A DNA stretch of 64,000 nucleotides from Nitrosopumilus sp. (GTDB lineage Archaea; Thermoproteota; Nitrososphaeria; Nitrososphaerales; Nitrosopumilaceae): positions 384,001-448,000 of the forward strand of contig CBDBLO010000002.1 in NCBI GenBank assembly GCA_965207075.1, given 5' to 3'. Positions within the stretch are counted from its first letter, which is position 1. Every line of letters begins with the position of its first letter. Made by a program: the position numbers and the translations under genes. The notes beneath the pieces were generated by a model, which was not told the DNA's origin, ran no database searches, and saw only the letters and a program-made list of their open reading frames with translations. Of the stretch, positions 46,893 to 50,130 are shown one piece after another.

Positions 46893-47552
46893 CTATCTCG
46901 TATATGCTTCCAGCCCAGTCTTTGTTGGAGTCCAGTTCTTTGGCTCAAATTTGCTTGGAAGTCTTGAAACCAGCCGGTCTGATTCTAACCCAATGTACAC
47001 CAGTCGCTCTATGATTGCATGTACTTCGCGTCCGGATACGTTTTGGAGCGGCCAGTTTGTAATTTCACTTTCTTTGTCTGTCGTATGACCATAGCGGTCT
47101 ACAAACCATTCAAGTGGTGTCCTGCCGTTGACGTGATATTCACAGATTGGTAATCTATTATATATGATTATATCATCAATTATCAGGACATGATGATTCT
47201 GACTGCTTGTGATATTTTTGGATGAGTCTTTTTTCTGATGGCCCCATCTTATGTTACGCGGCGAATTGGGAATGTTGTTTACGGGCATGCCTAAATCATG
47301 CCGCTTGCAGGTTTCCCATGACAAGTGAAGATCCGCCAACTCTTTGCCTATCTTTGAGAATGCCCAAAAGTCGGGTGCCATTGGAATGTGTGGAAGTTCC
47401 CGGGTGAGATTGTTTGCATACTTCTCTCGATATCCAGAATGGTGTAAGAGTCCATAGACGTAATAGAAAATATCTTCTTTAGTGACAGTATTGTCATTGT
47501 AATGTGTTCTATATTCTTCAAGAGCATAATCTGTAATGTTGTCTACCATCAT
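46893..47552 (-). CDS. Type ISP R-M C-terminal (LlaBIII-like) domain, separately encoded or fused by frameshift
   Basis: DNITDYALEEYR..Y....TKEDIFYYVYGLLH...YREKYANNLTRELPHIP, YHVNGRTPLEWFVDRY; the frame stays open upstream into the (AG) tract. Confidence 0.85.
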   Translation of the reverse strand: MMVDNITDYALEEYRTHYNDNTVTKEDIFYYVYGLLHHSGYREKYANNLTRELPHIPMAPDFWAFSKIGKELADLHLSWETCKRHDLGMPVNNIPNSPRNIRWGHQKKDSSKNITSSQNHHVLIIDDIIIYNRLPICEYHVNGRTPLEWFVDRYGHTTDKESEITNWPLQNVSGREVHAIIERLVYIGLESDRLVSRLPSKFEPKNWTPTKTGLEAYTR

Positions 47553-47658
47553 TCTTTCATCACTTTCATCGGGAATACTTGACCGTGATGGACTACTTCC
47601 AAGTCTGGTATCGTGTCGGTTATGAATACCGAAAACTTGCCCTGTATCTTGTATGGTA

Positions 47659-50130
47659 TTAATATGCACAGATTGCGCCTGCTCTCTCTCTCTCTCTCTC
47701 TCTCTCTCTCTCTAAGTACGTAACTTTAGTCTTTAGTGGAAAAGCTTGTGACTGTGCAATCACGTGTAGATCTGGAGTGACATCAGTCATCAACCCGGAA
47801 AATTTCTCTCCGATTCCCTTGTCAGGCACAACAATCGCCAAGTTCTTCGAATCCGGTTTGGGAAATGACTTGAACGCAAATCCGGGCGTTTGATTAAATA
47901 TCTTGTCTAAATACAGATATTGTTTAAAAAATGGACGATAAAGAGCTATGCGGATTCTATTTTTTTGAAATTTTTGCTTACCATGTCTCTTAAGCAAAGT
48001 TGATAATTCCATACTCCACTTGGCTTTTTTAGGATTAATTATGGGATTGTCCAAATCTTGAGAATTACAATAACGTATGCAAGTTTTCATATTGTCAGAT
48101 AATGTTTTTTTAGATGAATTGTATGTCCACACATCACGTTTAGTTTTTACGCCATTTGCATATATTCTGAATATTGCACCCTCTTTTCCTTTTTTGGCAT
48201 CTTTGCTTCCTATAGGCAAATATTTGTTAAATTCAGGATTGCGTTGATCAACCCAATCATAATGTTCGTCAGGGATAATGGTTTGCCAATCTGATATGCC
48301 TTGGATCGATATAACATCTCTGATTATAGACAGTTTTTGCTCACGAGTATGATAGTCTCCAATGTCTTTGTAGTGGATTGTGCCCGGATGTGATTTTTTG
48401 TGATTTTTGACTAGAATGGTTATGGCAACGGGGGCTCTGGAACCTGAACCAAAGATCTTTCCGCCTTCCTTTTTTGATATTTCACCTTGCGTTCGTTGAT
48501 TGCCTCTCAAGTCAAACACCCAAACGTCCGTAAATTCCTCTTGTAAGCACGCCCGGACGCCTGCTCCTGCATCAGATCTTATAAAACTGCCGTTTGTAAC
48601 AAATCCGATGATGCCGGACTCACCTATTCTATCTGATGCCCAACGCATTGATTGAATGTAAGAATCGTAAAGAGTGTTTAATGCACCAATTTCCGGATTG
48701 ATCGTCTTGGTCTTTTCCAGATATGTGTATTCTATCCTATTATTCATCTCTGGATACTCAATATTTTGATTCTGTTCGTTGTAGTTGCTTTGGCCTGCAG
48801 AATATGGGGGATTGCCAACTATTACATGCAGATTTGACTTGCGCTGTTTCTGTCGTCTCTTTCGTATGTCTACAAATTCTTTGTCTATCTTTGTTTCTTC
48901 CTGTCTGTGATGTGTGCCCTCTAGATATCGCGGATCCATCATGAACGTATCTGTGTAGTTCATGCCTTCAAAAGGGGCATAATGATTTGCAATGGCATGT
49001 GTGGATTCCATGTTTACAGTGGCGATGTAAAACGCTAGCAGGAGAACCTCGTTTGCAAACATGTCGTCGCGGTACTTTTCAGTGAGTTTGTCACCTAACA
49101 TACCAGAATTTAATAATCTTGCCAAAAATGTTCCTGTTCCAGTGAACGGGTCTAGTATTTTCACTGAACGATTTGAAAAATCAGTTTTGAATTCTGTTTT
49201 TAACACATGTTGTACACTGTTAAGAATAAAATCTACGACTTCTATTGGTGTGTAGACGATTCCATCCCTTTTGGCACGCTTAGGATCGTATTTCTTGTAG
49301 AACGTCTCGTATATGTTACGTATGAAATGCTGTCTATTCTCATTGTCTGTTATGGATTCGGCCACGAGCTCGATCGAACTATAGTTGCTAAACTTGTCTG
49401 GTATGGCTAAGAGTTCACGTAGCCGTTCAAGCTCCTGTGCGATACTGTTATTTTTTGTAAAGTCATAGTCGTATATCATTGCAAATATTCTGGAGGTAAT
49501 GACATGCTGTATCAGCATGTCTATGATGCTATTCTGATCTATGGTGTCGTTGAGAATTTCTCTACATACAGCTGCAAATTTTTCTGATTCTGCAAGATAT
49601 CTCTCGTTTTTTCGTGCGCTCGACAATACCAGCTCTCTGGTGTCCTGTATTACGTCATCTAGGTTCTCCTCGAATTTCTTGAGTGCTTCGTCATACTTTG
49701 AAAATACATCAAAGGCTTCTTGCACCCGCTCATCTATTGACAGAAAGTTATCCTCGTCAGTAGCGCGGATCATCCTGACAAACGCGGGCAGCCCATACTT
49801 TTCAGAGTCGGGTGCAATGACAATGTGGCGCGGTCTTGGATTGCGTGTCATCTTGTCCTGTATGGTGGTCATTATCATAGAGTCGTCGTACTTGGTGGCT
49901 ACCAGACAGGGGGCGTTCTGGGATTCTGCAACGCTGCGCGCCGTGCCGCGCCAGTTTGACTCGGTCTCCATGTACAGTATGTTGTACTCGTCGTTGCGCG
50001 CTATAATCTCACAGTCTATCATGTCCGATGATGATATTGCGCCAATGTCTATCGGCTCGCGCATAGTGTGGTATCCTGCCCTTCCAAGGTGGCGTGAGAG
50101 TACGTCAAGACTGTCTGAAAACAACGTCAA
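47659..50130 (-). CDS. N6-adenine DNA methyltransferase/specificity protein of Type ISP/IIG-like R-M system, ending just after an (AG)16 tract
   Basis: GIVYTPIEVVDFI, motif I ILDPFTGTGTF, motif IV VIVGNPPY, RWASDRI, DLRGNQRT.GE.SKKEGGKIFGSGSR, GVKTKRDVW, YRPFFKQYLY. Confidence 0.9.
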   Translation of the reverse strand: MTLFSDSLDVLSRHLGRAGYHTMREPIDIGAISSSDMIDCEIIARNDEYNILYMETESNWRGTARSVAESQNAPCLVATKYDDSMIMTTIQDKMTRNPRPRHIVIAPDSEKYGLPAFVRMIRATDEDNFLSIDERVQEAFDVFSKYDEALKKFEENLDDVIQDTRELVLSSARKNERYLAESEKFAAVCREILNDTIDQNSIIDMLIQHVITSRIFAMIYDYDFTKNNSIAQELERLRELLAIPDKFSNYSSIELVAESITDNENRQHFIRNIYETFYKKYDPKRAKRDGIVYTPIEVVDFILNSVQHVLKTEFKTDFSNRSVKILDPFTGTGTFLARLLNSGMLGDKLTEKYRDDMFANEVLLLAFYIATVNMESTHAIANHYAPFEGMNYTDTFMMDPRYLEGTHHRQEETKIDKEFVDIRKRRQKQRKSNLHVIVGNPPYSAGQSNYNEQNQNIEYPEMNNRIEYTYLEKTKTINPEIGALNTLYDSYIQSMRWASDRIGESGIIGFVTNGSFIRSDAGAGVRACLQEEFTDVWVFDLRGNQRTQGEISKKEGGKIFGSGSRAPVAITILVKNHKKSHPGTIHYKDIGDYHTREQKLSIIRDVISIQGISDWQTIIPDEHYDWVDQRNPEFNKYLPIGSKDAKKGKEGAIFRIYANGVKTKRDVWTYNSSKKTLSDNMKTCIRYCNSQDLDNPIINPKKAKWSMELSTLLKRHGKQKFQKNRIRIALYRPFFKQYLYLDKIFNQTPGFAFKSFPKPDSKNLAIVVPDKGIGEKFSGLMTDVTPDLHVIAQSQAFPLKTKVTYLERERERERERAGAICAY
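47682..47713 (-). repeat. (AG)16 dinucleotide microsatellite inside the R-M gene
   Basis: 32 nt of (CT) on the + strand; translates as ERERER... Confidence 0.97.

Follow-up and report, generated by a model that had tools for sequence, protein, structure and literature searches.

Methyltransferases subject to phase variation count as a hallmark of bacterial pathogens adapted to a host, and the hsdS gene of the NgoAV system switches at a poly-G tract. In Helicobacter pylori, repeat-associated frameshifts changed the recognition sequence of the Type IIG enzymes JHP1272 and HP1353-HP1354 at two positions, according to the available text of Krebes et al. (2014, PMC3936762). In the phasevarions, as portrayed in the available parts of three reports (PMC5909438, PMC7383803, PMC4889913), simple sequence repeats (SSRs) inside the open reading frame (ORF), with units not divisible by three, make the expression of the methyltransferase (MTase) change stochastically and reversibly; Type III mod, Type I hsdM/hsdS and the Type IIG gene cj0031 of Campylobacter jejuni belong to this group. 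Here we analyse a putative switch of this kind in an archaeon, located in a stretch of 64,000 nucleotides of Nitrosopumilus sp. (contig CBDBLO010000002.1, positions 384,001 to 448,000 of the forward strand; in the following the window), where a gene for a Type ISP-like restriction-modification (RM) enzyme is interrupted at an (AG)16 microsatellite. Its closest precedent is the specificity switching of the H. pylori Type IIG enzymes by frameshift, followed by the bacterial phasevarions. The word 'archaea' has no occurrence in the available text of either of two surveys of phase-variable Type I/Type III systems (PMC5909438, PMC7383803). For a repeat-switched RM enzyme in archaea or among the Type ISP enzymes no description was found in the literature, in agreement with a preliminary description of the locus that knew of no such archaeal system. 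A 2025 preprint states that archaeal contingency loci have already been studied, but the work of Vashakidze and Prangishvili cited therein reportedly concerns simple repeats in archaeal genomes generally.

The locus is very probably a real and selected repeat switch with three states. The interrupted gene, ORF1, is at present terminated shortly behind the tract and ends with ...NLAIVVPDKGIGEKFSGLMTDVTPDLHVIAQSQAFPLKTKVTYL(ER)5RAGAICAY, eight codons leading from the tract to the stop codon. Its N-terminal ~160 amino acids had no family match in Pfam; they are followed by a Type ISP coupler, a gamma-class N6-adenine MTase with the NPPY motif and a partial target recognition domain (TRD). Pfam matches were PF22240 (E 2.7e-12), PF02384 (E 3.7e-11) and PF18135 (Type_ISP_C, E 7e-32, profile positions 1-152), and PADLOC assigned the protein to REase_MTase_IIG (E 8e-186). 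ORF1 carries segment A, a part of the TRD, in front of the microsatellite, with a short spacer in between. Behind it lies segment B in the reading frame of 47731, which reads ...RNLCILIPYKIQGKFSVFITDTIPDLEVVHHGQVFPMKVMKE up to the stop codon TGA at 47551-47549, with the N codon of B at 47674. This stop codon overlaps the ATG at 47552 of a further open reading frame, the C ORF, in the arrangement ATGA. The C ORF encodes the remaining part of the domain (PF18135, E 2.7e-44, profile positions 144-329). Segment B matches Type_ISP_C at profile positions 111-152 (E 2.3e-4), the same positions as A, thus A and B are paralogues of one domain piece. A third frame, from 47729, is free of stop codons from the tract through the end of C. 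Frame arithmetic yields three products: with n=16 repeat units translation stops after A (state z), with n=15 or 18 A and B are joined (state x), and with n=14 or 17 A is connected by a linker to C (state y). The present assembly represents state z. ORF1, B and C are all intact, the sole stop or frameshift being the one at the repeat. The preliminary description had named tract, segments, overlap and products: Tandem Repeats Finder (TRF) located the same perfect repeat, the translations gave the same segment A and the same overlap of the B stop with the C start, the residue count over the 38-amino-acid segments returned the reported 19 identical positions between A and B, and its three products agree with the arithmetic. 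The features are compiled in Table 1.

Table 1. Coordinates of the candidate switch locus and of the neighbouring partner gene and insertion sequence (IS) element in the window
Feature	Position	Strand	Remarks
C ORF	46893..47552	-	219 aa from ATG 47552; remaining TRD core and guide subdomain; Type_ISP_C 144-329
Segment B	47549..47674	-	paralogous 38-aa cassette, frame of 47731; Loop VI PDLEVVHHGQ; segment HMM E 9e-26
Linker reading of B DNA	47553..47681	-	C frame, stop-free, ~43 aa; dual-coding with B
ORF1	47659..50130	-	823 aa; present end TAA 47661-47659 in the (AG)16 state
(AG)16	47682..47713	-	perfect microsatellite, read as (ER)n; putative frame selector; (CT)16 on + strand by TRF
Segment A	47731..47844	-	TRD beta-hairpin and Loop VI cassette, 38 aa; Loop VI PDLHVIAQSQ; segment HMM E 5e-21
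IS element	50187..51445	-	1259 bp; DDE_Tnp_1 transposase ORF 50376..51344; single copy in genome
Partner gene, PLD (HKD) nuclease and SNF2 helicase	51389..54694	-	1101 aa; Pfam; PADLOC 'HKD+Snf2'

The preliminary description had proposed a search of homologues for the arrangement A-(AG)n-B-ATGA, and the layout was found repeatedly. Besides the window's own protein 119 homologues with 55-75% identity are listed, and at least 29 of them present the layout: ten end just after A and the repeat, 15 consist of A, repeat and B and end at '...FPMKVME(K)', and four continue from A over a linker into C. Relatives of the C ORF, searched in one genome per species, were obtained at 17 loci affiliated to Nitrosopumilaceae/Thaumarchaeota, Dehalococcoidia/Chloroflexi and large sulphur bacteria. 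In 401 sampled genomes of the class, 57 matches were present in 32 genomes, all of them within the family of the window. Forty-four of these matches were examined with a profile hidden Markov model (HMM) of the segment: 19 had the switch layout (15 genomes in four Nitrosopumilaceae genera), 23 had a single segment, and two were without a detected segment. The single segment was always in frame with C (23 of 23 in this set, 36 of 36 overall); in archaeal loci with two segments, B was never in frame with C. A scan of metagenome contigs with 11 loci revealed no new switch locus, eight having a single segment in frame with C and three no segment, two of the latter being cut before the C start.

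Two classes of switch loci were observed. In the main class 1, B is positioned one frame off C, and its stop codon overlaps either the C ATG or another ATG shortly downstream of it (ATGA/TGATG; 7 nt later in L009), as scored on 13 unique class-1 B sequences, among which L042 and L047 were not captured. In class 2 (L010, L056, L058, L065 and L069), B is two frames off C and runs 10-58 nt past the C start. Three loci in Chloroflexota (L013, L015 and L016, from metagenome-assembled genomes of Dehalococcoidia/Chloroflexi) have two to four tandem cassettes in different frames, ~150-720 nt upstream of the C start. In L013, frame 1 after a C10 tract leads to cassette 2 and a stop, frame 2 to cassette 3 and a stop, and frame 3 to C. 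In L016, the three frames behind (CCAGC)4 end at cassettes 2, 3 and 4, respectively; here a stop follows the first cassette, and a new ATG is located just before the repeat. These arrangements are the clearest sign that the cassettes may serve as alternatives addressed by the reading frame.

Some loci related to the C ORF deviate from both layouts. L008/L037 possesses B, a 7-mer repeat with 11 copies and C; within 1300 nt upstream no A was found, the upstream frames contain stops, and C has a TAG after 24 codons. It is probably a decayed copy. In the window itself, the stretch 62123-62245 on the + strand (G000:C2:446123-446245) shows a weak match of 42 amino acids to the C-terminal part of the C ORF (E 5.9e-4) with one internal TGA, possibly a piece of a further Type ISP-like TRD.

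Segment B is under selection in its own reading frame. For the 13 unique class-1 B sequences (78 pairs), the differences per codon position were 0.215, 0.095 and 0.495. The proportions of synonymous (pS) and nonsynonymous (pN) differences in the B frame were 0.65 and 0.16, equivalent to a ratio of nonsynonymous to synonymous substitution (dN/dS) of 0.12; the other two frames gave 2.7 (linker frame) and 1.8. Hence B is a translated, constrained protein segment, and neutral decay, a possibility raised in the preliminary description, is not what the 13 loci display. Gene conversion or a recent spread was considered as cause of the conservation and rejected, since the synonymous sites of the B copies are near saturation. 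The C frame is constrained as well: in 17 of 18 unique loci it passes through B without a stop, and ~1.8 loci are expected under synonymous shuffling (sum of per-locus probabilities of 0.003-0.53). A methionine codon stands at the C start in all 15 class-1 switch loci vs none of 36 canonical loci. Both downstream readings thus appear to be used, as state x would need B together with an independently started C and state y an open linker. Given a single repeat upstream, expression of C in two phases is possible only through a fusion in one phase and re-initiation in the second; the arrangement matches this exactly.

The repeats between A and B in the relatives are perfect, with units of 1, 2, 5, 7 or 11 nt, none divisible by three, and none contains a stop in any frame of the coding strand. 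Eight loci including the window have (AG) or (GA) tracts of 10-26 units; others have (CA)6, G11, G7, three different 7-mers in 9-17 copies or an 11-mer. The latter, in L007/L036, comprises 89 perfect copies over 978 nt, 116-1100 nt upstream of the C start and in the reading frame, and encodes an identical peptide repeat of 11 amino acids from all three frames. In L069, a 5-mer with 32 copies is located upstream of both detected segments. Peptide repeats of 8 or 10 amino acids in P0004, P0006, P0012 and P0027 point to units of 8 or 10 nt, which were deduced from the peptides alone and not counted. In the host genome (2.23 Mb, two contigs, 60% GC), 67 of 84 perfect repeats other than mononucleotide runs have units divisible by three, and (CT)16 is the only dinucleotide repeat with at least 10 units.

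All three states occur among the 18 distinct two-segment loci (x in five, y in seven, z in six), and four of the five loci with a short or no repeat are in state y. The length of the tract differs between alleles that are identical or nearly so, the comparison which the preliminary description had asked for across related genomes. P0005 and L005 are identical in 1337 of 1337 residues upstream of the tract; the former has ~(AG)13, reads (ER)4 and is in state z, vs (AG)21 and state x in the latter. L063 and L064 have 10.9 vs 17.3 copies, and L056 and L065 have 24.5 vs 16.5, with shared flanks and differing states. These comparisons rest on assemblies, in which errors at repeats are possible. The locus has the attributes of an SSR contingency locus: a perfect repeat in the reading frame that is of sufficient length to slip, a unit not divisible by three and, in relatives, a copy number varying between near-identical alleles.

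Further repeats of the host genome are possible contingency loci: a perfect (GGCA)25 at G000:C2:718728-718827, a perfect (TGCC)11 at 1776998-1777041 of the same contig and 84 homopolymer tracts of 9-18 nt, mostly G/C. For the ORFs beside (GGCA)25 and (TGCC)11, Pfam was uninformative apart from nearby HNH_2 and MazE-like domains. Unrelated to the switch are perfect tandem repeats of in-frame length in the window at 2015-2331, 16575-16713, 61864-61992 and 62714-62841, with 48 nt x3.8, 21 nt x4.6, 12 nt x11.6 (GAGCACGACCAT), 43 nt x3.0 and 33 nt x3.9.

The duplicated region belongs to the target-recognition part of a Type ISP enzyme, as the preliminary description had proposed. In the structure of LlaGI, a Type ISP enzyme, according to the available text of Kulkarni et al. 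(2016, PMC4872093), Loop VI comprises residues 1365-1374, the G:C pair at +3 of the target is recognised by H1368, G1372 and Q1373 of this loop, and a hairpin of residues 1347-1358 stabilises the core. The chain index of 5ffj plus 164 corresponds to this numbering, which was checked on N1018 (NPPY), H1368, G1372 and Q1373. When segment A of P0025, a close relative, is aligned to 5ffj with HMMER, A and B correspond to LlaGI 1342-1378, i.e., to the hairpin and Loop VI. Segment A (PDLHVIAQSQ) retains the histidine and the glutamine that read +3 in LlaGI; segment B (PDLEVVHHGQ) has glutamate and histidine there. Loop VI differs between A and B in 18 of 18 loci. The B copies share an invariant framework (N1, I4, K9, P24, D25, Q33, F35 and P36), with the variation in Loop VI and the tip of the hairpin. 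Among canonical homologues that are otherwise very similar, the corresponding stretch is hypervariable.

Two states were modelled. For the TRD of L040 in state y, a predicted template modelling score (pTM) of 0.77 was obtained, with a folded segment A, a helical (ER)n stretch, a linker (183-219) with a predicted local distance difference test (pLDDT) value below 50, and C at 86-95. The TRD part of L005, a natural state x, was modelled in complex with its own C ORF and reached a score of 0.83, with 0.01 for the best control. Among solved complexes 58 of 80 attained this mark, among mismatched pairs 2 of 110; as the two chains together make up a domain for which relatives have been solved, the good result of L005 may reflect likeness only. 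The runs agreed in at least 27% of the contacts, and the pLDDT of the partner was at least 83. The model supports a split TRD that would reassemble from two chains and gives no support for a displacement of A by B.

We propose a contingency (phase-variation) locus within the TRD of a two-gene Type ISP-like RM system in a Nitrosopumilaceae archaeon. A perfect repeat with a unit that is not a multiple of three would separate two alternative Loop VI cassettes, and slipped-strand changes of the repeat number would place the downstream DNA in one of three frames. In state y, the DNA of B would be read as a disordered linker in the frame of C, which results in a single fused MTase-TRD protein using A. 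In state x, B would be translated after A up to the TGA overlapping the C ATG, and C would be made as a separate, translationally coupled protein that reassembles the TRD. In state z, as in this genome with n=16, translation would stop a few codons past the repeat, and the enzyme would most likely be inactive. Most likely, the recognition sequences of the x and y products deviate from each other at +3, and z is OFF. As a whole, this is the explanation we consider probable. Its component that state x uses B, so that x and y differ in their recognition sequence, is about evenly balanced, if not slightly doubtful. We infer that the tract slips within populations, that the parts of the split enzyme come together with B in position, and that the motif changes. 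More tentative still is the view that the loci constitute a class of 'frame-addressed cassette' switches, without a description in the literature searched, in Archaea (Nitrosopumilaceae) and Bacteria (Chloroflexota), in which a microsatellite would pick among up to three Loop VI cassettes in different frames of dual-coding DNA, with a coupled TRD remainder, and would cause a reversible, heritable change of specificity at +3 besides an OFF state. A recombination between A and B was also considered as switch and rejected, as any recombinant stays out of frame with C.

The partner gene, upstream of ORF1, encodes the nuclease and the helicase of the system. Its present last 18 codons derive from an IS element that has inserted between the two genes. 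The element has terminal inverted repeats of 12 nt (GGCGCTGTCCAG / AGCGCTGTCCAG) and has a target duplication of 9 bp on either side (50178-50186 and 51446-51454; TACCGGTAC when read on the - strand). The final 17 codons of the partner gene are replaced by the element, and 1.26 kb now separates this gene from ORF1. Before the insertion, the native end of the partner gene would have been ...EEYRYTREIGKPRILYSMEIN, with a stop codon overlapping the start region of ORF1. In two relatives, G208 and G117, three loci have the same PLD-SNF2 gene immediately upstream of the gene for MTase and TRD. In G208, the PLD-SNF2 gene beside the switch locus L040 (G208:C1:1535694-1538880) is split into open frames of 576 and 558 amino acids, reflecting either a frameshift or a further point of switching in the partner gene.

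Together, ORF1 and the C ORF comprise the Type ISP coupler, the gamma-class N6-adenine MTase (NPPY) and the C-terminal Type ISP TRD, and the relative P0025 matches the LlaGI structure 5ffj with an E-value of 5.6e-122 (HMMER). A nuclease or helicase domain, which a Type ISP enzyme carries in the same polypeptide, was not found in ORF1 by Pfam and PADLOC. With the separate PLD-SNF2 gene, a pairing that also occurs in relatives, the system of the window has to be seen as a two-gene Type ISP-like system rather than a strict Type ISP enzyme. The switch-bearing relatives L005, P0005 and P0008 combine Mrr and helicase in one chain; L005 and P0005 are true single-chain Type ISP enzymes.

Several observations weigh against the three-state switch with alternative cassettes. 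The assignment of the segments to Loop VI and to +3 is a presumptive one, carried over from LlaGI by way of P0025. The interface residues named in the complex model of L005 belong to A (153-191) and none to B (219-256), while residues not named are uncertain. On the question raised by the preliminary description whether A and B occupy the same DNA-contacting position, the alignment assigns both to LlaGI 1342-1378, and the complex model sets A and not B against C. In class 2, a start codon for C (ATG/GTG/TTG) is absent from L010, L056, L058 and L065, with a methionine present in L069; a split enzyme with a coupled C can therefore not be the whole story. The difference between P0005 and L005 could be an assembly artefact or originate from two assemblies of one sample. 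Six sequencing runs in three studies are listed as containing the sequence of the locus, with no RNA run among those listed; in four of four runs, the Logan contigs end inside the tract from both sides and are uninformative on n or its heterogeneity. The window copy, in state z and separated from its partner gene, may be silent here. Of the earlier proposal that slippage selects A or B, or ON or OFF, and so changes the motif, the conserved and selected three-frame layout and the tract differences between alleles speak in favour, and the complex model without B at the interface speaks against the exchange of cassettes. The model and the four class-2 loci lacking a C start would fit an enzyme that is switched ON and OFF only, with y as sole active form, x and z both OFF, and B as remnant of a tandem duplication kept as an open linker; of the five loci whose repeats are short or degenerate, four are locked in y. 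We regard this as unlikely, because purifying selection on the B frame is strong (dN/dS 0.12 at near-saturated synonymous sites vs 2.7 in the linker frame), its Loop VI varies between loci on an invariant framework, the C ATG with its overlap to the B stop is specific to switch loci, and the loci in Chloroflexota have a different cassette in each frame.

The three-state switch could be real in the family and its copy in this genome be disabled, i.e., horizontally acquired, hit by the IS element and frozen in a truncated form. The GC content of the MTase gene is 38-44%, against 60% for the genome, the insertion with its target duplication has replaced the end of the partner gene and separated the two genes, and the present state is z; with the element just upstream of ORF1, this copy may be partly disabled. 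However, ORF1, B and C have remained open except at the repeat, which is perfect and long, unlike the expectation for a frozen tract, and the sequence of the locus was present at 0.96-0.98 of the sampled words in runs of two studies. A disabled copy is unlikely as well. A bridging at the level of RNA or ribosome, by programmed -1/+1 frameshifting at the junction of B and C or by transcriptional slippage on the repeat, would take the place of changes in DNA length. The junction would need exactly -1 in class 1 or +1 in class 2, and in class 2 a +1 shift near CGG CGA GAA would restore a canonical-looking junction. Yet the junction has no canonical slippery heptamer, the position of the B-frame stop in class 2 is not conserved (L010 vs L056), and the repeat numbers differ between alleles in the DNA. 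Units of 7 and 11 nt are not known to serve as substrates for transcriptional slippage. We consider this route very unlikely. Least credible of all is chance or decay, by which the gene would be a pseudogene that happens to contain a microsatellite and a frameshift, or an error of the assembly in the tract. It is true that the gene is interrupted in the assembly, that an IS element is adjacent and that the length of the tract is known from the assembly alone; an error in n, however, changes the state and not the layout. The layout recurs, with repeats of different types, in 19 of 44 family members, B is under selection, the C frame has stayed open and the start codon of C is derived; these results show that the gene is not a decayed one.

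If the three-state switch holds true, the ammonia-oxidising archaea of the Nitrosopumilus family would share the same bet-hedging principle. Under the more tentative reading as frame-addressed cassettes, the locus would be the first phasevarion-like epigenetic and defence switch in archaea. It would provide a route for archaeal populations to vary the specificity of their defence, and possibly their methylome, against viruses. For the enzymology, it would represent an experiment of nature in the reading of position +3 by enzymes of Type ISP and Type IIG. The layout is not rare, being present in about four in ten family members in the sampled Nitrosopumilaceae. For genome annotation, it has to be taken as a warning that such 'frameshifted pseudogenes' would be functional loci under this reading.

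The design appears more elaborate than those known, with one repeat, three meaningful frames, a duplicated base-reading loop, overlapping coding and a TRD that would be fused or split. The enzymes LlaGI and LlaBIII (PDB 5ffj and 4xqk; PMC4872093) have a coupler, a gamma-MTase and a TRD homologous to those of the window system. LlaGI is one polypeptide with Mrr nuclease and SF2 helicase and contains one cassette and no repeat, whereas the window system has a separate PLD-SNF2 gene. The alternative modules side by side and the stochastic choice between them are shared with Type I systems, in which hsdS is switched by recombination between duplicated hsdS genes, as described in the available text of PMC7394358. 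There, site-specific or homologous recombination or a truncation of HsdS is responsible; here, the reading frame would select the module. Phasevarions, in the parts available of PMC5909438, PMC7383803 and PMC4889913, are ON/OFF systems of host-adapted bacteria; here, three products and a duplicated recognition cassette are encoded. The H. pylori Type IIG enzymes resemble the locus most, since in both a repeat-associated frameshift inside a single-chain RM/MTase gene alters the downstream part of the protein. In the available text on H. pylori (PMC3936762), an additional C-terminal domain is gained or lost through a homopolymer, whereas the repeat described here is placed between paralogous Loop VI cassettes. 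Unlike in H. pylori, the downstream DNA is dual-coding, the TRD remainder would be either fused or a coupled separate ORF, and the hosts are archaea and Chloroflexota.

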